Origin: Minisyncoccota bacterium
Lineage (GTDB): Bacteria > Patescibacteriota > Minisyncoccia > Phycocordibacterales > JABAAK01
NCBI GenBank assembly: GCA_965222235.1
Contig: OZ244939.1
Coordinates: forward strand, 248,585-312,584
DNA: 64,000 nt
Direction: 5' to 3'
The notes below the pieces were generated by a model, which was not told where the DNA came from, did not search any database, and was given only the letters and a program-made list of their open reading frames with translations. A program made the position numbers and the translations under genes. The stretch's first letter is position 1, and each line of letters begins with the position of its first letter. This document shows positions 3,411 through 46,524 of the stretch, piece after piece.

Positions 3411-3875
3411 CTATGCAAATCCCTCGTCATGCATGAACGGACCGCGGGACGACGCCGTCACGGCAAGACTGTCCGCCATCTCGTTGCCCTCGTCATTCGC
3501 ATGCCCCTTGACCCACTGAAACACCACATGGTCGTCCGCCAGCGCATCAAGCTCCCGCCAGAGATCGGCGTTCTTCACCGGTTTCTTCTGTCCTCTTTCC
3601 GTGCGCATCCAGGCGTTTCTCTTCCAATTCTCTTTCCATTGTGTCATTCCTTTCTGTACATATTCGCTGTCAGTCCAGACCGTGACGGTGCCGGCATTGC
3701 CGAACTTTTTCAGCGCGGCGATGACGGCGAGCAACTCCATGCGGTTGTTTGTCGTTCTGTAATAGCCCTGGGAGAATGTGTGCACAACTGAACCGTCACG
3801 GTACACCACAGCACCGATGCCGCCGGGACCGGGATTCCCCTTGCACGACCCGTCCGTGTACACCGCATATTCCAT
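3411..3875 (-). CDS. rnhA: Ribonuclease HI
   Basis: MEYAVYTDGSCKGNPGPGGIGAVV...NNRMELLAVIAAL...TDSEYV...WVKGHANDEGNEMADSLA. Start taken at the internal ATG at 3875; the track ORF extends to 3959. Confidence 0.85.
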   Translation of the reverse strand: MEYAVYTDGSCKGNPGPGGIGAVVYRDGSVVHTFSQGYYRTTNNRMELLAVIAALKKFGNAGTVTVWTDSEYVQKGMTQWKENWKRNAWMRTERGQKKPVKNADLWRELDALADDHVVFQWVKGHANDEGNEMADSLAVTASSRGPFMHDEGFA

Positions 3876-3932
3876 AGTATGTTTCAGTGTACCACGGCTC
3901 TTCATCCCGCTTGATGATATACTGCGTGTACC

Positions 3933-4006
3933 GGACCGTAGCATAGTGGTAGTGTGCACGCATGGGGTGCGTGTGGCCCGGGTTCGATTCCCGGCGGTCC
4001 GACCAG
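3933..4006 (+). tRNA. tRNA-Pro (anticodon GGG), CCA encoded
   Basis: Cloverleaf folded by hand: acceptor CGGACCG/CGGTCCG, anticodon stem CACGC/GCGTG, loop AUGGGGU, T-arm CCGGG-TTCGATT-CCCGG. Close to E. coli tRNA-Pro. Confidence 0.8.
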
Positions 4007-4007
4007 A

Positions 4008-4871
4008 CTACGCGCTTTTCTGCGTGGAACGCAGGCTTTTAAGGAATGTGATGGTGCCCCGAATACCTGTCATAAACCGCTCGTCCGTCTTTCTGGCAAG
4101 TGCCTCATACCGGTCATGGTGCGGCGGTCGGTCTTTCTCTCCCAGATATATGCGGGTAAGGGACATGCACATGTTCCGGATGAAATAATCAAACGCCCTT
4201 TTTTCCAGGACAGATACATCAGTCAGGTTTCCTTTCATCTGTTCAATAATAGTAAACACCATGTTGCCGGGGATTGACAGTGAACACAGCGGAAAATCAC
4301 CGGCACTGCGGTCAGTCGGCATGAATGAACCGTCATCCTGCTTTTTGTACCCGTATTCAAGACGCGCATATCCCCCGTTGATTGAAAGTATCTGCTGCTC
4401 CTTGTTATGCAGCGTCCTTTTGTTTCCGAACACCACTTCGTCAACGGAACAGACGACATCACCGTTCTCCCGGTTGACAATAACAGTGTCAATGCCGTTT
4501 TTCAGGTCATCATAGAGTGATGACCGCACGGCGACCACCCGTTCCGGAACCATTTTAGTGAAAATAATAGGCACCAAATGCTCAAAAAGTTCCGATTCTG
4601 CCGCTGTCTTCTCTCCTTTCTCCCGCATATCCTCCTGCCGCGAGCGTACATAGTGTTCATGGCGACGCATATCTTCAGGTGCACGGGAATCGCGGAATGC
4701 GGACGGATGAATCCGTCCGTTCCGATCAAGGCGCACGCCGACCTGCCGATAGTGCTCAACAAGATCCGCCGTGGCGGCCTGCACTGTTTCCTGCGCCCTG
4801 GCGTGCTCCTGTTGTGTTGTGCGCTCGTTCGGAGCGGATGTTTTGCGCTCAAAACTCTTCATTGTCAACAT
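4008..4871 (-). CDS. Hypothetical protein (287 aa)
   Basis: Long ORF with gene-like composition. No family recognised by eye. Confidence 0.5.
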   Translation of the reverse strand: MLTMKSFERKTSAPNERTTQQEHARAQETVQAATADLVEHYRQVGVRLDRNGRIHPSAFRDSRAPEDMRRHEHYVRSRQEDMREKGEKTAAESELFEHLVPIIFTKMVPERVVAVRSSLYDDLKNGIDTVIVNRENGDVVCSVDEVVFGNKRTLHNKEQQILSINGGYARLEYGYKKQDDGSFMPTDRSAGDFPLCSLSIPGNMVFTIIEQMKGNLTDVSVLEKRAFDYFIRNMCMSLTRIYLGEKDRPPHHDRYEALARKTDERFMTGIRGTITFLKSLRSTQKSA

Positions 4872-20545: not shown

Positions 20546-20593
20546 ACAGGCAGTGTAGCAAACATTCCGTCAATACAGAAATCACTCAGACCC

Positions 20594-21737
20594 AAGTTCA
20601 AACAAATAATAGAACACCTGTCATATACCAAGTAATACTGGAGACATATGACAAAAGCAAAGAAAAAGAGACGGGAACCGTTCACCCGTCTGAATATTCA
20701 TGAACGGAGTAGTATTGAAGTGAGATACTGTGCTGACAAGAGATCCCTGCGGGAGATAGCGAAAGAGTTGGGCAGGTCACCGGGAACCATACATCGGGAA
20801 ATAGGGGGAAAACCGAGAAAAGGAGTCGGACGGTACTGCGCGCTGAGGGCACAGCGGGAAGCAGAGAAAAGGATACACACCCGGGGGAGGAAAGGAGTGC
20901 TGACCGACAGAGCACTCCTTGGGTATGTGCGGGAGAAGATGGAGGAAGGATGGTCTCCCGAGCAGGTGAGTATTCGTCTTCCCCGGGAGTTTCCGGAGGA
21001 CACAACCATGCGGGTATCTCATGAGACGATATATACCTTCATATATGCGCAGATTCACCAAAGCGGACACGGTATCGTGAAACCGGGGTATCTAGACTTA
21101 CGGTCTCTTCTGCCGAGAAGAAGGAAGAGACGCATACGGCAAGGAGTGAGAAACACACAGAAAACAGAACGAAGAGCGGCCTTGCCCTCCATTGAGGAGA
21201 GACCGGGGATAGAGGGGGTAATCGGTCATTGGGAAGGTGACACCATGCTCTCAAGGAAAAGCAGCGTTAGGGTAAAGAGTATGAATGAAAAGATGACCGG
21301 TCTGGCATTCTTTGAGAAAACAAAAGACGGTACCGCTGAGTCCTGTGACGCGGCAATCATCAGACGAATGCGCGCTGTCCCTCCGAGATACCGCAAGACC
21401 CTCACCCAGGACAGAGGGGCGGAGAATAGGGGGTACCGCACCGTTGAAAAAGAACTCAGTCTCTCCTGCTACTTCGCCCATCCGTACTGCTCTCATGAAA
21501 GAGGATCAAACGAGAACACCAACGGATTGTTCCGTCGGTGTTTCCCGAAGGGGACTGACTTTGACAAAAGCAATGACCGTGACATTGCCAAGGTTGAGTA
21601 CCTATTGAATACCCGTCCCAGGAAACGCCTTACTGGTCTGACCCCTTACGAGGTATTCTACCGCATGACCGGTGTCAATCTCCAGAGGATGGCATATTAC
21701 AAACTGACAGGTGTTCAATTAGAAGTTTGAATGTAGG
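20594..21737 (+). mobile_element. IS30-family insertion sequence, copy 1 (1144 bp; imperfect ~27-bp terminal inverted repeats TTCAAAC...AACACCTGTCA)
   Basis: 100% identical to 42828..43971. The IRs were found by comparing the left end with the reverse complement of the right end. Confidence 0.85.
20648..21730 (+). CDS. IS30-family DDE transposase (360 aa)
   Basis: N-terminal HTH, HWEGDT and NENTNGLFRRCFPKG..LNTRPRK motifs typical of IS30 transposases. Confidence 0.9.
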   Translation: MTKAKKKRREPFTRLNIHERSSIEVRYCADKRSLREIAKELGRSPGTIHREIGGKPRKGVGRYCALRAQREAEKRIHTRGRKGVLTDRALLGYVREKMEEGWSPEQVSIRLPREFPEDTTMRVSHETIYTFIYAQIHQSGHGIVKPGYLDLRSLLPRRRKRRIRQGVRNTQKTERRAALPSIEERPGIEGVIGHWEGDTMLSRKSSVRVKSMNEKMTGLAFFEKTKDGTAESCDAAIIRRMRAVPPRYRKTLTQDRGAENRGYRTVEKELSLSCYFAHPYCSHERGSNENTNGLFRRCFPKGTDFDKSNDRDIAKVEYLLNTRPRKRLTGLTPYEVFYRMTGVNLQRMAYYKLTGVQLEV

Positions 21738-24878: not shown

Positions 24879-25012
24879 GACTCGTCCCCGCCACTGTTAT
24901 TTCCAAACACCGTCAATGGTATCAAGCGACCGAATTCGACAGCGGAGGCAGGTACACATAAACAACTTTCAACCGTATGATATAGCAAATGTGTACCATC
25001 TTTACACTCCAG

Positions 25013-25096
25013 TGCCCAGGAGAGGACTTGAACCTCCACGGGATTACTCCCATACGCTCCTGAAGCGTACGCGTCTACCAATTCCGCCACCTGGGC
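25013..25096 (-). tRNA. tRNA-Leu (anticodon CAG), type II long variable arm
   Basis: Reverse complement GCCCAGGTGGCGGAATTGGTAGACGCGTACGCTTCAGGAGCGTATGGGAGTAATCCCGTGGAGGTTCAAGTCCTCTCCTGGGCA. Confidence 0.85.
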
Positions 25097-31641: not shown

Positions 31642-31685
31642 AAAATCAAACTACAAACATTTTTAGATTATCCATTACTTATATA

Positions 31686-31940
31686 CTAAAGGAATCCGCC
31701 GCATCCGGCAAAGAGCACTTCATCTGAATCGTCAGCACTCTCCAAGTACTCAAGGTAATCCATTGTACCGAGTACGTCACACTGTAGACTTGATTGAGCG
31801 ACGGTATCATCGGTGTTAGATGAAGAATATCCCAACAATGGAGCTGTTTGCTCAGCACTTATCCACTGCAAACCAAAAAACCCTAATACCACTACAACAA
31901 AAAATACAATGCACTCCACGATTGTCTTTGTTTTAGTCAT
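31686..31940 (-). CDS. Small secreted/membrane-anchored peptide P1 (84 aa) with conserved acidic Cys-containing C-terminal core
   Basis: N-terminal TM/signal, then a Ser/Thr-rich stretch, then VAQSSLQCDVLGTMDYLEYLESADDSDEVLFAGCGGFL. Paralog of 34354..34614. Confidence 0.55.
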   Translation of the reverse strand: MTKTKTIVECIVFFVVVVLGFFGLQWISAEQTAPLLGYSSSNTDDTVAQSSLQCDVLGTMDYLEYLESADDSDEVLFAGCGGFL

Positions 31941-32506: not shown

Positions 32507-34153
32507 TCACAAGATTCCTTGCCGGCGGATTGTATCGTAGGGAACAGTCTCTAAATTTTCCCGGTCAATTAAAATCCACGGATTGTGTCTTAATGGGTGA
32601 TACTCTACAGCACAAACATTGACCTCGTCCAACACCCGCCGATAAGGTTCCAAGTTAATGGCAATGTCCATGGTAAGCAATGCTGACTTGAGATTATTGT
32701 GCAAACACCGCTGCTTCAATACATACCATTGATAGTAAGGTCTGCAATACCCCATGCGTTCTTCTTCCCACCATTGAACGGATTCAGTGTTATCTTGATC
32801 ACGAATAGAGGTGGTAATGTAACACCAAGGCAACGCCTGAAACATATGCAGACCAAAACGGACTCCTTCACGGGTGAGTCGTGAATCGCCCGGTATGACA
32901 AGAGAGACACTCTGCCCCAGGATTAATAAGGCAGTTAACCCGATGATGATAATTTGATGCAGGCGTTTTGCGGGCCAATGTATAGGACATTCGTGTCCCA
33001 GGAACACAATAAGTAGTATCACCACAGCTACCGCCGGAAAGAAATATTGAATTAATACGACCGAATAAATATGAAATATGAACAATGCGCCGATCGCAAT
33101 ATATCGTAACGGTTTTTTACTCAACAATAACCAAATGATGCCCCCATGTATGGCTATGACTGTTAAGGCAAGTGGTGTGTGCAATTGGTCACCGACGATC
33201 GGGAGTCCCAGGTCAAGTGATTTAAATATTTCCCCCCCCCCCAACCACGAATCGTTCATTTTAGAGCTTAGTGATAAGATATAGGTCATCATAAGCACCC
33301 ATCCCACGGTCATAATTTTATTTGGCAAAAACAGAAGAATGAAATTGATTATGCAAACATAAAACATCACATGGCCATAGTAAAAATCATTATGGGTTAA
33401 CAATCCCACCAGGACTATGTGCCACACTGCAGGTACCAACAGCAGCATGTGTCCCAAAACCAGACGGCGCGAAAGCACGGCAACCAGGGCTCCGGAGAGA
33501 AATAGCATCAACACAATACTCCAGATGTGATATCCGTACTCTGAAAAAATATAATATTCATAACAATTTTGAAACCAGATGGGACAGATGTACTCCCCAA
33601 CCTGCAAAGGAGTGACGATTGATAGGGCTGGGTTTTTCAGGGCAAAAACTAAAAATGCAATTGAAGCGATTAATAGGTACGGTGCCAATTGACTGTTTTT
33701 AAACTCATGTACACTAAACAGTCGTTCGTATCCGGTAAAATATTTACGGAATGGCGACACATTCAACATGACACGTTGACCGATAGTTTTGACAAGTAGC
33801 CACAAACCGACACCCAGTACAAACCAATGAAGGTATGTATGTTCAAGGCTGGTATGTATAGTGGGATCTATGTAGCCCAGAAAAGCGGTGATAATTGACG
33901 GCAGCAAGAGTAACCATGCTGTTGTTGTATAACCACGATACATCTGTATGCCGCTGAGGAGAAACAATAATAACAACCCCGCGTACAAATACATAAAGGA
34001 ATAGCCCACCGGCTGTATAGTCAAATCGGACCCTAATATTGCTTTGCTGACATAGGGGGACTCAAGGATAACGAATGCTGTGATCAATGTCGTCCAATAT
34101 ATGACTGTGCCGGTCTGTTTGGTCAGGATGTGCTTTATGATATACATCGGCAT
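32507..34153 (-). CDS. Hypothetical polytopic membrane protein (548 aa, >10 TM)
   Basis: Highly hydrophobic ORF directly downstream of peptide P2. No family recognised. Confidence 0.5.
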   Translation of the reverse strand: MPMYIIKHILTKQTGTVIYWTTLITAFVILESPYVSKAILGSDLTIQPVGYSFMYLYAGLLLLFLLSGIQMYRGYTTTAWLLLLPSIITAFLGYIDPTIHTSLEHTYLHWFVLGVGLWLLVKTIGQRVMLNVSPFRKYFTGYERLFSVHEFKNSQLAPYLLIASIAFLVFALKNPALSIVTPLQVGEYICPIWFQNCYEYYIFSEYGYHIWSIVLMLFLSGALVAVLSRRLVLGHMLLLVPAVWHIVLVGLLTHNDFYYGHVMFYVCIINFILLFLPNKIMTVGWVLMMTYILSLSSKMNDSWLGGGEIFKSLDLGLPIVGDQLHTPLALTVIAIHGGIIWLLLSKKPLRYIAIGALFIFHIYSVVLIQYFFPAVAVVILLIVFLGHECPIHWPAKRLHQIIIIGLTALLILGQSVSLVIPGDSRLTREGVRFGLHMFQALPWCYITTSIRDQDNTESVQWWEEERMGYCRPYYQWYVLKQRCLHNNLKSALLTMDIAINLEPYRRVLDEVNVCAVEYHPLRHNPWILIDRENLETVPYDTIRRQGIL

Positions 34154-34353
34154 ATCTGTAAAAAGTATTCATGATGGATGACATGTGTACTCCGTGTGTT
34201 TCCGAGGCAGGGTTCGTAATGAGTAATATACAATAGATTCGGTGGATACTGGATAGAATCCGAACATTTCGACAAAAAGTATCGTGACCACACACCAATA
34301 AAATCAAACTACAAACATTTTTAGATTATCCATTGTTTATATACTATCATATA

Positions 34354-34614
34354 TTAAAGGAACCTCCCGCATTCGGCAAAGAGCGCTTCATCTGAATCGT
34401 CAGCACTCCCCAAGTACTCAAGGTAGTCCGTTGTGCCGAGTACGTCACACTGTAGACTTGATTGAGCGACGGTATGTGTATCAGTAGAATCGGTGGATGA
34501 GTTAGAGAATTTGCCAGATCCTGAAAAGGCGGATGTCAACACCAGGAAATATATTGAGCTGATGAAAAATCTTGTAAAAATGAAACGCAAATGATATATA
34601 ACCATGACTACCAA
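34354..34614 (-). CDS. Small secreted/membrane-anchored peptide P2 (paralog of P1)
   Basis: C-terminus VAQSSLQCDVLGTTDYLEYLGSADDSDEALFAECGRFL. The track start is a TTG; the likely ATG start is at 34605. The 3' half of the gene and 45 bp downstream are near-identical to the P1 locus. Confidence 0.55.
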   Translation of the reverse strand: MVVMVIYHLRFIFTRFFISSIYFLVLTSAFSGSGKFSNSSTDSTDTHTVAQSSLQCDVLGTTDYLEYLGSADDSDEALFAECGRFL

Positions 34615-35962: not shown

Positions 35963-36600
35963 CGTTTCCTCCTTCTAAGGAAAAGAACTGGTAATCAATC
36001 CGCCCAATCTCCCACTGAAACGGGAGCAGTTGGATCTGCAATAAATAATACCAGAATTCCGTAAAAACACAACGAATTGATTATCAATAAAACTATAATG
36101 AAAGACAACTGATGGGAAAGCTCACTATTGTGCTTCAGCAACATTCAGATAATATTCATCATCTGTCGTTTGAAACAGACAGGTGCCTTTGCTTTGACTT
36201 GCTTTCCGTTGTCTTTCTCTTGAAGTACACCTTGGCTTTTGTGTTGCCGCGGGGCACCTTTCTCCTTTTTCAAACTGTTTTTTTGAGTTTTAATGCTATT
36301 CTCTATTGGAAACTTGGAAAGAAGAATGTATGGTATATTGCGAAACATAAAAAAACTCATGGAGGAACATTCCGTGAGATGAGACATCAAACGCGAAACA
36401 GAAAGGAGTCCGAGGGATACCATACCGTTTTCGGATTCTCCCATATGACATTAACGGAACGGAAGCCTGTGGCAGTAGTTGGTTCCGGCTCAACGGTGAA
36501 ACTGGGATCAAGGAAAACAGCACGAACGAACGGGGATACCGTGATACCGATACCCTCCGGTGCGGTGAGATACGCTTCGCCGGAGATTTATACTGTCCAG

Positions 36601-36684
36601 TGCCCAGGAGAGGACTTGAACCTCCACAGGATTACTCCTATACGCCCCTCAAGCGTACGCGTCTACCAATTCCGCCACCTGGGC
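36601..36684 (-). tRNA. tRNA-Leu (anticodon GAG)
   Basis: Near-identical to tRNA-Leu(CAG) at 25013..25096, differing by C34G, A38G and a compensatory pair in the variable arm. Confidence 0.85.
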
Positions 36685-42777: not shown

Positions 42778-42827
42778 ATATGCATAATATACCGCAAAAA
42801 TACCGCACACCCAAATAACTACCCCCT

Positions 42828-43971
42828 AAGTTCAAACAAATAATAGAACACCTGTCATATACCAAGTAATACTGGAGACATATGACAAAAGCAAAGAAAA
42901 AGAGACGGGAACCGTTCACCCGTCTGAATATTCATGAACGGAGTAGTATTGAAGTGAGATACTGTGCTGACAAGAGATCCCTGCGGGAGATAGCGAAAGA
43001 GTTGGGCAGGTCACCGGGAACCATACATCGGGAAATAGGGGGAAAACCGAGAAAAGGAGTCGGACGGTACTGCGCGCTGAGGGCACAGCGGGAAGCAGAG
43101 AAAAGGATACACACCCGGGGGAGGAAAGGAGTGCTGACCGACAGAGCACTCCTTGGGTATGTGCGGGAGAAGATGGAGGAAGGATGGTCTCCCGAGCAGG
43201 TGAGTATTCGTCTTCCCCGGGAGTTTCCGGAGGACACAACCATGCGGGTATCTCATGAGACGATATATACCTTCATATATGCGCAGATTCACCAAAGCGG
43301 ACACGGTATCGTGAAACCGGGGTATCTAGACTTACGGTCTCTTCTGCCGAGAAGAAGGAAGAGACGCATACGGCAAGGAGTGAGAAACACACAGAAAACA
43401 GAACGAAGAGCGGCCTTGCCCTCCATTGAGGAGAGACCGGGGATAGAGGGGGTAATCGGTCATTGGGAAGGTGACACCATGCTCTCAAGGAAAAGCAGCG
43501 TTAGGGTAAAGAGTATGAATGAAAAGATGACCGGTCTGGCATTCTTTGAGAAAACAAAAGACGGTACCGCTGAGTCCTGTGACGCGGCAATCATCAGACG
43601 AATGCGCGCTGTCCCTCCGAGATACCGCAAGACCCTCACCCAGGACAGAGGGGCGGAGAATAGGGGGTACCGCACCGTTGAAAAAGAACTCAGTCTCTCC
43701 TGCTACTTCGCCCATCCGTACTGCTCTCATGAAAGAGGATCAAACGAGAACACCAACGGATTGTTCCGTCGGTGTTTCCCGAAGGGGACTGACTTTGACA
43801 AAAGCAATGACCGTGACATTGCCAAGGTTGAGTACCTATTGAATACCCGTCCCAGGAAACGCCTTACTGGTCTGACCCCTTACGAGGTATTCTACCGCAT
43901 GACCGGTGTCAATCTCCAGAGGATGGCATATTACAAACTGACAGGTGTTCAATTAGAAGTTTGAATGTAGG
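42828..43971 (+). mobile_element. IS30-family insertion sequence, copy 2 (identical to copy 1); possible 4-bp CCCT flanking duplication
   Basis: 1144/1144 identity with 20594..21737, same orientation. The flanks read ...cccct|IS|ccctg... Confidence 0.85.
42882..43964 (+). CDS. IS30-family DDE transposase (identical to 20648..21730)
   Basis: Identical 360-aa translation. Confidence 0.9.
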   Translation: MTKAKKKRREPFTRLNIHERSSIEVRYCADKRSLREIAKELGRSPGTIHREIGGKPRKGVGRYCALRAQREAEKRIHTRGRKGVLTDRALLGYVREKMEEGWSPEQVSIRLPREFPEDTTMRVSHETIYTFIYAQIHQSGHGIVKPGYLDLRSLLPRRRKRRIRQGVRNTQKTERRAALPSIEERPGIEGVIGHWEGDTMLSRKSSVRVKSMNEKMTGLAFFEKTKDGTAESCDAAIIRRMRAVPPRYRKTLTQDRGAENRGYRTVEKELSLSCYFAHPYCSHERGSNENTNGLFRRCFPKGTDFDKSNDRDIAKVEYLLNTRPRKRLTGLTPYEVFYRMTGVNLQRMAYYKLTGVQLEV

Positions 43972-44415
43972 CCCTGAGGCACGGCGACGGATAATCAAAA
44001 GTATCAATTGGCGGGGTTCATATTATTTCACTTCCCCGGATGACCGAGGAAACCACACGATATCTAGAAAGTCGTACTGCACTCTCTGTAGCAAACTCTG
44101 CCTGGATGCCAGTCTCTGGACATTCATGCTTGAGTACGAAAACGACATCTGCGCGTATGATACGGAAGAGCACAACGACCTGTCATATCGGTTTACGGCA
44201 TGACATACCCTGCGCTATTATTTATTATTTGGCGCGTTCGGGTATGTTGAAATCTTCTTTTACGCTCTCTTCCACCATCGGAGATTTATATATTCCTCTC
44301 AAAAGTCTGTTGAGTAAATCTTCAGATACGGGATCACACATTATGAAAGCATCAACGGAAAAATGTTTCGCAGTAATTGGCATCGGCTTATTACAGTCAA
44401 AACATGTTTTCTTTG

Positions 44416-44646
44416 TTAATGAACACTCTCTGCTATTCCTAGCACTTTGATATTCATCTTCCTCAACCAGTACCAGAGCATTTTGAACATAAAGATTTTT
44501 TTCTGTGTATATGAAATTCTTTTTTCTACCTGAGAGGTCGCCATAACGAGCAACACTTTTGACTTAACGGTGTTGCTCTTGCTGATAACAACCCATCTGT
44601 GACTTCCCTCACTGAAGTCATATACAAACACAGATCCGATACTCAT
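44416..44646 (-). CDS. Small protein (76 aa), candidate toxin partner of the Panacea-domain antitoxin
   Basis: Its start overlaps the PanA stop (ATGA). N-terminal beta-rich segment IGSVFVYDFSEGSHRWVVISKSN..VLLVMATSQ is vaguely MazF/PemK-like. Confidence 0.4.
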   Translation of the reverse strand: MSIGSVFVYDFSEGSHRWVVISKSNTVKSKVLLVMATSQVEKRISYTQKKIFMFKMLWYWLRKMNIKVLGIAESVH

Positions 44647-45293
44647 ATTCGCGCCGCTTCCAAAATTTTCTCTGCCTGCTTATGTTCGATATAAAGATCT
44701 CTCGCCGTTTTAAGATCACACACTCCGAGTATATCTTTATTGTTCCCCGTTGCCGCACTCAACAGTTCTTCCTCGTCTATGTCCTCCCACTTTTCGCTTT
44801 TTTCAAACTTCGCCCCTTCCGGATATATGTGCGTTTTTTCCCAAAACACCCCCCTGCTTTCCGGCTGCTTGAGATCCTTCCTGAATATGTTCCAAACAAA
44901 ATCAAGAACCTCCCGGTCAGTTTCAGACAATTGTTTCATATCCGTTTCTCTCACGGATTCTATTTTCATGCGCGGGCGGTTCCCATCTTTGGAAGGGGTG
45001 TTCGGGAATGCCGTGACCGCAATAAACTCACGCGCATACTTCACCTGTTCCGCCCTGTTTTCGTCATCGTTTGAACAGGACTCAATCAACTCGACCGTGT
45101 TTTTCGCAACCGGTCCCATCTGTTTCGCCTGATATAAATCACCCGTTATGGTCCGCAGGTAGTCGCAAATGTGTTTTTTGTCGGCAAAATACACTAGTTT
45201 GAGCATGTTTGTTTTGTACAGCGGAATACCTTCTTTTTCTGCCCTTGCCGCAAAAAAGCTGAGGACCTGCGTTGCCTTTTTATAATTAAACAT
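44643..45293 (-). CDS. Panacea-domain (DUF4065, SocA/PanA-like) antitoxin
   Basis: LKLVYFADKKHICDYLRTITGDLYQAKQMGPV matches the conserved KLLYFA...GPV core of DUF4065 proteins. Confidence 0.55.
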   Translation of the reverse strand: MFNYKKATQVLSFFAARAEKEGIPLYKTNMLKLVYFADKKHICDYLRTITGDLYQAKQMGPVAKNTVELIESCSNDDENRAEQVKYAREFIAVTAFPNTPSKDGNRPRMKIESVRETDMKQLSETDREVLDFVWNIFRKDLKQPESRGVFWEKTHIYPEGAKFEKSEKWEDIDEEELLSAATGNNKDILGVCDLKTARDLYIEHKQAEKILEAARI

Positions 45294-45503
45294 ACGCCTT
45301 ATGTATAAACAGTATACCTATTAACCGCCTTTTCACCAAATTCCGTGGAAAACTCCGTTTAAACCGTACGGTGGTGTTCATGATTTGACGCTTGAACTAA
45401 TCCGATACTTTTGCTCTGTTCAAAAGTTTCATTGGGCGGAGTGAACGGAACCACGCTTGAACTTGTGCGGCACTTCAAGAATGAAATAATCGGAGATGAC
45501 CAC

Positions 45504-45550
45504 TGATCCGTCTTTTCATTTTACCACCCCAAAAAACGCACTACAGAGCC
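45504..45550 (+). repeat. 47-bp element TGATCCGTCTTTTCATTTTACCACCCCAAAAAACGCACTACAGAGCC, copy A
   Basis: An exact inverted copy lies at 46304..46350, immediately upstream of the DUF805 start. Copy A is followed by hairpins and a T-rich tract. Confidence 0.7.
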
Positions 45551-45764
45551 AAGAAAAGTGCCATAACTATGGAAATGACCTACTCGCTCGCTCCGTACCG
45601 ACACTGAAGCCGTGTCGGCACATCGCTCGCTCATATTCCGGCACCAGCAAAGCCGGTGCCGGAGACAGATGGTGTCCCTACTTTTTCTTTGCAATTTCAT
45701 CCCGCCGCACATCGCCTCGCAAAGCGAGGCAGTGAACGGAAAAGAAAAAAGTAGGGACGCTCCA

Positions 45765-46295
45765 CTAAAATGTATGAAAGAGACACACCTCGCCGTCTTC
45801 ACAGTTCTGAGTATGAAACTTACTATAGATTGCACTAAATCCCAGAAATAAAAAAACAATAAAGAGAATAATAAAAAGAAAATGGTACCCACGAAACCTG
45901 GGCTGTTTTGTATGTTCGTCTATGTTTTTCCCTCGGAAAGCAGAGAGAACAAGTACGGTAGGTATATTTATCAAGGGAATGGCAATGAGGATAGAAAACC
46001 ATCGTGACCAGCCAATGTCATTGAGCCGTTTTGATGCAACAGGTATAAGGAGAAGTGGAAGTATAATTAAAAAACTCGCAATCGCGTCAATCCAGAAAGT
46101 AGGGTCCTTGAAAGTCTTATAAAGAGTGGTTGTAAAGTAAAGTAAGTATGTAAGTTCAATCAGCGGAAACCAGAGAAAATACAATGTCCAAACAAAAAAA
46201 GGCAATCTCCCCACACGCCCCTGAAACAATTTTTTGTGATCTGAAATAAGTTTTTTGATACTACCCATATACACAGAATATACCATGGGATACAT
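45765..46295 (-). CDS. DUF805-family inner membrane protein
   Basis: LFQGRVGRLPFFVWTLYFLW (GRxxRxxFW signature). The track ORF extends through tRNA-Ser, so the start is set at the internal ATG 46295. Confidence 0.6.
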   Translation of the reverse strand: MYPMVYSVYMGSIKKLISDHKKLFQGRVGRLPFFVWTLYFLWFPLIELTYLLYFTTTLYKTFKDPTFWIDAIASFLIILPLLLIPVASKRLNDIGWSRWFSILIAIPLINIPTVLVLSAFRGKNIDEHTKQPRFRGYHFLFIILFIVFLFLGFSAIYSKFHTQNCEDGEVCLFHTF

Positions 46296-46303
46296 TTTTT
46301 TCC

Positions 46304-46350
46304 GGCTCTGTAGTGCGTTTTTTGGGGTGGTAAAATGAAAAGACGGATCA
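46304..46350 (-). repeat. 47-bp element, copy B (inverted), forming the 5' leader/promoter region of the DUF805 gene
   Basis: Exact reverse complement of 45504..45550. Confidence 0.7.
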
Positions 46351-46431
46351 TAGGCGCGCGCCTGCGCGCGCTCCATCAAGGCACCGGCAAAGCCGGTGCC
46401 GAACACACGACCGACAGGGAGTGTGTCCCAC

Positions 46432-46524
<93 letters not shown>

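Follow-up and report, generated by a model that had tools for sequence, protein, structure and literature searches.

A candidate PanAT toxin-antitoxin cassette with an intact panA gene and a frameshifted gene for a predicted MazF-fold partner

Gene content and organization of the locus

A 64,000-nucleotide stretch of contig OZ244939.1 (assembly GCA_965222235.1, positions 248,585 to 312,584), hereafter called the window, contains a pair of small overlapping genes to the right of an IS30-family insertion sequence (IS) element. The upstream gene, panA, encodes a protein of 216 amino acids (aa) with a Panacea domain. It is followed by a 76-aa open reading frame (ORF), and the stop codon TGA of panA overlaps the ATG of this downstream gene in the sequence ATGA. 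An earlier note, made from the sequence alone, had proposed the two ORFs as a candidate PanAT-type toxin-antitoxin (TA) pair. The coordinates of both ORFs, their ATGA overlap and their location beside the IS copy were confirmed, and both ORFs lie on the minus strand, which the note had not stated. Coordinates of the features are listed in Table 1.

Table 1. Features of the PanA locus and of the surrounding window
Feature	Position	Strand	Description
panA, 216-aa ORF	44643..45293	minus	ORF reading
76-aa ORF	44416..44646	minus	ORF reading
Partner gene, 5' segment, frame 0	44497..44646	minus	codons 1-50 (MSIGSVFVYDFSEGSHRWVVISKSNTVKSKVLLVMATSQVEKRISYTQKK); HR (Arg17), ATS (Thr37)
A7 homopolymer (CAG AAA AAA ATC)	44496..44502	minus	most likely site of a 1-nt deletion; ancestral A8
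Partner gene, 3' segment, -1 frame	44225..44497	minus	90 codons (NLYVQNALVLVEEDEYQSARNSRECSLTKKTCFDCNKP...CDPVSEDLL...SPMVEESVKEDFNIPERAK); stop TAA 44227-44225
Out-of-frame tail of the 76-aa ORF	44416..44495	minus	26 codons plus stop; residues 51-76 (IFMFKMLWYWLRKMNIKVLGIAESVH)
PanA C-terminal extension	residues 139-216		~78 aa; W151, WxxTHxYPEG; terminal helix 194-214
Shine-Dalgarno-like motif AAGG	45297-45300		
-10-like hexamer TATACT	45311..45316	minus	(AGGTATACT); candidate promoter of the operon, 17 nt before the panA ATG
IS30-family element (copy 2)	42825-43971		inverted repeats 42825-42857 / 43939-43971; HTH_38
tRNA-Ser(GGA)	46433-46524		
54-nt inverted repeat	45504-45557 / 46297-46350		arms 94% complementary, with a 739-bp segment between them
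DUF805 membrane-protein gene	~45765-46270	minus	Pfam 38 bits
28-nt hairpin-like sequence	45640-45667 / 46380-46407		one copy directly next to each 54-nt arm
127-nt direct repeat	31681-31807 / 34349-34475		92% identity; either side of 548-aa ORF 32507-34153
C11 run	33232-33242		in a 553-codon open frame
tRNA-Leu genes (CAG and GAG)	24998-25096 / 36586-36684		99 nt at 92% identity, of which 14 nt are flank

Reconstruction of the partner gene

The partner coding sequence is not complete in the window; it is interrupted by a frameshift. The -1 frame of the minus strand is open from 44563 to its stop codon (about 112 codons), has no start codon before 44383, where the first Met of the 3' segment is located, and overlaps the 76-aa ORF across an A6 run (44520-44525) and the A7 run. 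A hidden Markov model (HMM) built from the other members of the partner family matched the window in frame 0 at model positions 1-51 (48 bits) and in the -1 frame at model positions 42-133 (97.6 bits). Past residue 51 the 76-aa ORF has no match to this HMM, and the same DNA matches it in the -1 frame. Because the matches switch from frame 0 to the -1 frame, the real partner gene, on this sequence evidence, runs from 44646 to 44225, comprises about 140 codons and has lost one base from an ancestral A8 run. Joining the two frames at the A7 run gave 156.0 bits, compared with 145.8 bits at the A6 run, and the A6 join, 10 bits lower, was rejected. The homologs read ..QKRKQYIQK.. in this region, agreeing with frame 0 of the window through ..EKRISYTQKK.

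Over its full length, the reconstructed 140-aa protein can be aligned with the 133-143-aa products of the genes located directly downstream of PanA homologs, and it shares with them the motifs HRxV, (A)TSxI/V, EYQS, CxLTKxTCFDCN, CD and SPxV..KE. The reconstructed gene is thus conserved, where the earlier note had taken lack of conservation of the small ORF as a point that would tell against its proposal. The 3' segment keeps every family-invariant residue and carries no further lesion. Public gene callers divide the gene into two 'genes' of 76 and 52 aa, and the ORF-poor stretch described in the earlier note is in part this broken gene.

The 76-aa ORF is therefore not an independent gene: family sequence ends after codon 50, and what follows is out of frame. 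The proposal that this ORF encodes a novel small toxin in full, with PanA as its antitoxin, can draw on the ATG start with ATGA coupling to panA, on its annotation as a coding sequence by gene callers and on the Arg and Thr motifs that it retains (see below). Yet none of the relatives has sequence corresponding to its final 26 residues, the -1 frame of this DNA matches at 98 bits, all intact relatives are 127-143 aa long, and the strands and C-terminal helix that form most of the MazF fold and dimer are missing. We consider this proposal extremely unlikely; the ORF is better described as the 5' fragment of the ~140-codon gene. The association of PanA with EndoA/PemK/MazF-like toxins, moreover, has already been published (PMC8832971).

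Neither the 76-aa ORF nor the reconstructed 140-aa protein was assigned to a significant family in searches of Pfam, NCBIfam, PADLOC and PHROGs. The reconstructed protein, used as a single sequence, had no match in a word-indexed search of 5.8 billion proteins. An exhaustive search of representative sequences with the 76-aa ORF retrieved the ORF itself, a frameshifted relative (P0017) and a low-complexity false positive (P0018). The partner family was found through the neighbours of PanA homologs and by profile search only.

The PanA antitoxin

The 216-aa protein matches the Pfam family SocA_Panacea (PF13274; DUF4065) with 52.3 bits (cutoff 25.7, E 1.3e-13), with PanA residues 31-138 aligned to profile positions 2-95 of 113. 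Judged by this match, it is a true Panacea-domain protein, and the absence of a Panacea match, which the earlier note had named as a result that would speak against its proposal, was not observed. Eleven homologs with 46-50% amino acid identity were retrieved, each with a precomputed PF13274 match. In an alignment with these homologs the window PanA is full length and retains all subfamily-invariant residues, and the subfamily HMM covers it at model positions 1-208 of 210. In the AlphaFold2 model of PanA (predicted local distance difference test, pLDDT, 88.2), the Panacea core leads into a conserved extension with a long helix at its end. PanA scored 12.1 bits against the SocA equivalog model of NCBIfam (NF047745), far below its cutoff of 190, and had no meaningful match in PADLOC.

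As shown by Ernits et al. (2023; PMC10440598), neutralisation by PanA can be direct, with the Panacea core as the acting part, or can depend on elements appended at the N- or C-terminus, Phd-C helices among them. By analogy with these findings, the C-terminal extension or its helix may be the neutralising element in the window PanA.

Predicted fold and conserved residues of the partner

The intact homolog P0015, with an alignment of 14 sequences, was used for fold modelling in place of the broken gene of the window. The AlphaFold2 model of P0015 has a pLDDT of 94.8 and a predicted template modelling score (pTM) of 0.89. In a Foldseek search against the PDB, the top 50 matches consisted of MazF/PemK/EndoA toxins and a single type III toxin, CptN. 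Their probability was 1.00, and their template modelling (TM) scores were 0.57-0.61 when normalised to the query and reached 0.77 when normalised to the target. They include Bacillus anthracis MoxT, Bacillus subtilis YdcE/EndoA, Staphylococcus aureus MazF and Mycobacterium tuberculosis MazFs; CcdB is absent among these top 50. The intact partner is accordingly modelled as a MazF fold, an SH3-like barrel of two sheets with a C-terminal helix. The earlier note had seen a MazF/PemK-like strand pattern in the N-terminus of the small ORF, and the fold prediction bears this out.

The family profile was also aligned with B. subtilis MazF, whose sequence was checked against 4ME7, using hhalign (E 2.2e-4). 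In this alignment the family Arg (in HR) and Thr (in ATS) fall on Arg25 and Thr48 of MazF, catalytic residues whose mutation abolishes activity (PMC7354611). The corresponding P0015 residues R21 and T41 are nearly invariant and invariant in the family, respectively, and their window equivalents, Arg17 and Thr37, both lie within the surviving 5' segment. In the family, the Thr motif is further followed by a helical linker rich in Lys, and there are four cysteines (C79, C86, C89 and C106 in P0015; C74, C81, C84 and C104 in the reconstructed window protein), two invariant and two near-invariant, within the motif CxLTKxTCFDCN...CD. By its predicted fold and conserved residues, the intact partner may be a toxic RNase. 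The truncated 76-aa product would not be expected to form a functional MazF-type dimer, because the other strands and the C-terminal helix are missing from it.

Distribution and decay of the two-gene cassette

A profile search of 5.8 billion proteins recovered about 14 members of the partner family, all without a Pfam domain and all from ENA or Logan metagenome assemblies. Members are present in a Candidatus Kaiserbacteria metagenome-assembled genome and in a 697-kb Candidatus Paceibacterota chromosome, and scans of viral-contig and JGI-metagenome collections for the partner family gave no relatives. The family appears to be restricted to bacteria of the candidate phyla radiation (CPR) type (Paceibacterota/Kaiserbacteria), an affinity that the window, judging from these relatives, would share.

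The PanA homologs were located on their contigs, and immediately after each of them comes a gene for 129-143 aa that lacks a Pfam annotation. The window and 11 other loci, all independent and the latter all from CPR-type genomes, were compared. The partner gene lies directly downstream of panA at all 12 loci, either overlapping it or separated by a gap of at most 25 nt. The flanking genes are otherwise unrelated and include pheST/rpoB, secA, dnaK, pilins, giant surface proteins and Fic. Because the pair alone is conserved among unrelated flanks, its synteny marks panA and its partner as a mobile two-gene cassette. The PanAT pairing proposed in the earlier note is upheld in this form, although the toxin gene is frameshifted in the window.

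The most divergent partner, P0029, lies 1 nt after a Panacea gene on ERZ23495284 scaffold_6036 (locus L011, 3001-3423). This gene contains six in-frame TGA codons, which indicates a host with recoded UGA (translation table 4 or 25), and thus that the cassette crossed between lineages with different codes. On another contig (ERZ25067264 ctg835787, locus L005, 2224-6245), a PanAT-rich hotspot adjoins a 6589-aa surface protein: within 4 kb there are three Panacea-domain genes, each with an unannotated small gene as its neighbour, and a DUF3800 gene. At locus L008, public gene calling overlooked an intact partner (3628-4035) and in its place reported an 84-aa ORF on the opposite strand (3714-3968). 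Since this intact partner is uncalled, the family is under-counted in protein databases.

A frame-resolved HMM survey indicated that panA is full length at 12/12 loci, while the partner is a single ORF at eight and split at four. In addition to the window, splits were found at locus L007 (model positions 1-45 / 39-133, +1 nt), locus L010 (1-100 / 99-133, within an A6/C7 stretch) and locus L012 (1-56 / 68-133, two shifts plus a stop in EYQS). The panA gene makes up 61% of the combined length and holds 71-73% of the homopolymer runs, and such a distribution of lesions has a probability of about 0.006-0.024 under random placement. This asymmetry is the expected pattern if loss of the toxin is tolerated and loss of the antitoxin is not. 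The confinement of decay to the toxin is indirect evidence, obtained in silico, for a costly partner and a retained antitoxin.

These results also bear on whether the pair is a classical TA system. Alternatively, it could be a defence or sensor module, or have another role, in which the MazF-fold protein does not arrest growth (for example a CcdB-like or non-catalytic binder) and Panacea acts as the sensor. A sensory role has been proposed for the Panacea core (PMC10440598), several predicted PanTs were non-toxic in Escherichia coli (Kurata et al., 2022; PMC8832971), and the Cys-rich motif CxLTKxTCFDCN...CD is not seen in classical MazF. We nevertheless regard such a role as very unlikely: the fold matches are MazF RNases and not CcdB, the catalytic Arg/Thr pair is invariant or nearly so, decay confined to the partner fits a costly toxin, and there are neither PADLOC matches nor relatives in viral contigs.

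Origin of the frameshift

The frameshift probably arose in the organism and not during assembly. For run ERR13605531, an independent Logan assembly contains a 1591-bp contig, reported in two samples, that is identical to window positions 43943-45533 including the A7 run. The window contains 41 homopolymers of at least 7 nt, and 37 of them, including A8, T9 and C11 runs, are located inside open non-overlapping frames of at least 200 codons; the assembly is therefore not considered prone to homopolymer indels. The panA gene is intact although it holds five runs of at least 6 nt. The C11 run is unusually long for coding sequence and is in itself a candidate site of slippage or phase variation.

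Should the assembly or the sequencing nevertheless be at fault, the true run would be A8, the toxin ORF would be an intact 140 codons and the PanAT module would be fully functional. Such an artefact could account for a lesion of a single base in a homopolymer followed by a flawless 90-codon frame, and errors are likely in related long-read-style assemblies, such as the one that splits dnaK at locus L012. It is, however, difficult to reconcile with the A7 run in the independent Logan assembly, with the intact state of nearly all long runs in the window and of panA, or with lesions that spare panA across loci, unlike random error. An artefact is for these reasons considered unlikely.

The Lys-coding A-tract in the linker might instead be a slippage hotspot, serving as a reversible on/off or dosage switch through A7/A8 variation or through polymerase or ribosomal slippage. 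Transcriptional slippage, -1 ribosomal frameshifting or a phase switch would then supply full-length toxin at a low or tunable level, or in a subpopulation only. In favour of this, the gene would need a -1 shift on CAG AAA AAA A, a tract that allows tRNA-Lys to re-pair; the frame beyond it shows perfect conservation; and of the four disrupted family members, three are broken within this linker (model positions ~40-56). By contrast, eight of the 12 loci are single-frame, so that frameshifting is not a feature of the family, and the other breaks differ in nucleotide and in sign, with a +1 nt shift at locus L007 and two shifts plus a stop at locus L012. The register G AAA AAA is not the canonical X XXY YYZ, RNA structure 3' of the run is not significant (z -0.61 and +0.78), and A7 falls short of the length, 9 or more, at which runs give efficient transcriptional slippage. 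A conserved shift, an in-register site and a downstream structure, the hallmarks of programmed -1 frameshifting or slippage, were thus not found at this site. We hold this explanation to be more doubtful than an artefact; if true, it would imply a phase-variable or slippage-gated TA module in an ultra-small CPR genome.

With a recent biological deletion as the preferred origin of the shift, the toxin in this genome is most likely inactivated or non-functional, because its ~140-codon gene is reduced by the frameshift to a 5' fragment.

Proposed mode of action

Taken together, we favour, with a probability of about 0.78, the interpretation of the locus as a bicistronic PanAT type II TA cassette in which panA is intact and the downstream gene for a ~140-aa MazF/PemK-fold toxin was recently frameshifted. 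In intact members, both genes would be co-transcribed from a TATACT-type promoter, and their translation would be coupled through the ATGA overlap. The intact partner would dimerise like MazF and cleave RNA with its conserved Arg/Thr pair. PanA would neutralise it by direct binding, probably via the C-terminal extension and terminal helix, and the Panacea core may serve as a platform or sensor. In the window, the toxin gene would have lost one A of the A8 run, and translation from the ATG would yield a 76-aa product of 50 native and 26 junk residues in which some two thirds of the MazF fold are missing. What is left of the module would then be an orphaned antitoxin beside a recently inactivated toxin pseudogene.

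Several results weigh against this interpretation. The equivalence of the Arg/Thr pair to the catalytic residues of MazF rests on the fold plus a weak sequence alignment with a probability of 45%. The reconstructed protein has no match at E<=10 in Pfam, including the PemK/MazF model, and the family profile has none at E<=10 among PDB sequences. The Foldseek search with the PanA model gave no meaningful structure match in the PDB (best DarG, TM ~0.4), and the Panacea assignment consequently rests on the HMM. The flawless downstream frame, with all invariant residues present, fits a very recent mutation, and equally an assembly error or functional slippage. The disrupted partners of loci L007 and L012 come from an assembly (ERZ21830300) that also splits dnaK, so part of the decay signal may be error. 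At locus L012 (3344-5106), this dnaK/HSP70 gene is divided into ORFs of 193 and 368 aa by a 1-nt insertion (GAAGGTAAA); indel errors are thus probable in this assembly, and the case for a biological origin of the toxin lesions of L007 and L012 is weaker for it. Finally, on the minus strand, the region upstream of panA gave no site in a generic sigma-70 scan.

Promoter, RNA elements and genomic context

The motif (T)GxTATACT was found 15-40 nt upstream of panA in 10 of the 11 loci compared, and this conservation makes the TATACT hexamer plausible as a shared -10 element. Generic scans for sigma-70 promoters and terminators gave no result above the shuffled expectation. The only tandem repeat at the locus is a 15-nt TATTATT duplication, and an Rfam search of the locus detected nothing except tRNA-Ser. 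A type III TA system of the ToxIN/CptIN kind, with an RNA antitoxin, was rejected, as there is neither a tandem RNA repeat array nor an Rfam element besides tRNA-Ser.

On the plus strand, the gene order is gatA, gatC, the IS30-family element, the broken toxin gene and panA (both leftward), the DUF805 gene, tRNA-Ser(GGA), ruvX and pyrG, with the identities of gatA/gatC and ruvX/pyrG taken from Pfam matches. The GC content is 37-47% across ~44000-46400, compared with 53-60% outside. This low-GC stretch between the IS30 element and tRNA-Ser is a small foreign insertion on the 3' side of the tRNA gene. An att-type duplication of the 3' end of tRNA-Ser was considered and rejected, since no such repeat was found.

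Two IS30-family copies are present in the window (~20579-21730 and 42813-43971), encoding a 360-aa transposase with an HTH_38 domain. They share 98% identity over the first 300 nt, and the terminal inverted repeats of copy 2 are 33 nt long. This copy was rejected as the cause of the break in the toxin gene; its end at 43971 lies about 250 bp beyond the toxin stop.

To the other side of panA, the DUF805 gene is located inside the 54-nt inverted repeat. The segment may be a cassette capable of inversion or mobility, or else a duplicate of the region downstream of tRNA-Ser. The independent Logan contig terminates within the left arm of this repeat. Elsewhere in the window, a long direct repeat and a pair of similar tRNA-Leu genes were observed (Table 1).

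Comparison with known systems

In the work of Kurata et al. (2022; PMC8832971), Panacea antitoxins pair with dozens of toxin types. The PanT clusters that HHpred assigns to EndoA/PemK/MazF in that study have overlapping genes in antitoxin-then-toxin order; translation is inhibited by the PanTs of Pseudomonas moraviensis and Bifidobacterium ruminantium, and for Chryseobacterium bovis a 'MazF' pair is recorded as toxic. The window cassette resembles the T5/T6 PanATs of Kurata et al. in that a Panacea (PF13274) gene lies immediately upstream of, and overlaps, a small MazF-fold gene, in the order antitoxin then toxin, in that the toxin is missed by conventional domain searches, and in forming a mobile two-gene unit, a likeness drawn by description and not by sequence. 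It differs in that its family is confined to about 15 proteins from CPR-type metagenome genomes, which are absent from the searchable part of the Kurata et al. (2022; PMC8832971) dataset, in the invariant TCFDCN/Cys-rich motif, in the distinctive ~78-aa C-terminal extension of PanA and in its frameshifted toxin gene.

Compared with MazF/PemK/EndoA toxins (PF02452; 4ME7, 4MDX, 1NE8, 4HKE), the partner family has the same predicted fold (probability 1.00, TM 0.57-0.77), a GD-hydrophobic strand, the HR Arg and ATS Thr at the positions of Arg25 and Thr48, a similar size and a C-terminal helix. However, identity is only ~15%, the proteins are ~20-25 residues longer, with a Lys-rich helical linker and conserved cysteines, and they are paired with Panacea instead of a MazE/PemI antitoxin (AbrB or ribbon-helix-helix).

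SocAB, a type VI TA system, shares with the window cassette the Panacea domain, which is named after SocA, the founding Panacea/DUF4065 protein. SocA is a ClpXP adaptor. The cassette differs from SocAB in its MazF-fold partner, which is not SocB, in its gene order and in the direct binding by which PanA would neutralise the partner.

Orphan antitoxins beside toxin pseudogenes in degenerating chromosomal TA loci show the same combination of an intact antitoxin and a toxin gene with a simple frameshift. The window locus has nothing unusual among them other than that its lesion is a single homopolymer deletion and apparently very recent.

The PanAT architecture and its likely mechanism are already known, and the finding adds a family member while leaving the understanding of PanAT unchanged. 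What is new is modest: a rare, highly diverged, Pfam-invisible MazF-fold PanT family with a matching PanA subfamily in CPR-type genomes. Two mis-annotated 'hypothetical proteins' of 76 and 52 aa are hereby corrected to one frameshifted toxin gene, and a small PanT family with a dedicated PanA subfamily is defined in the CPR, where TA and defence biology has been little studied.

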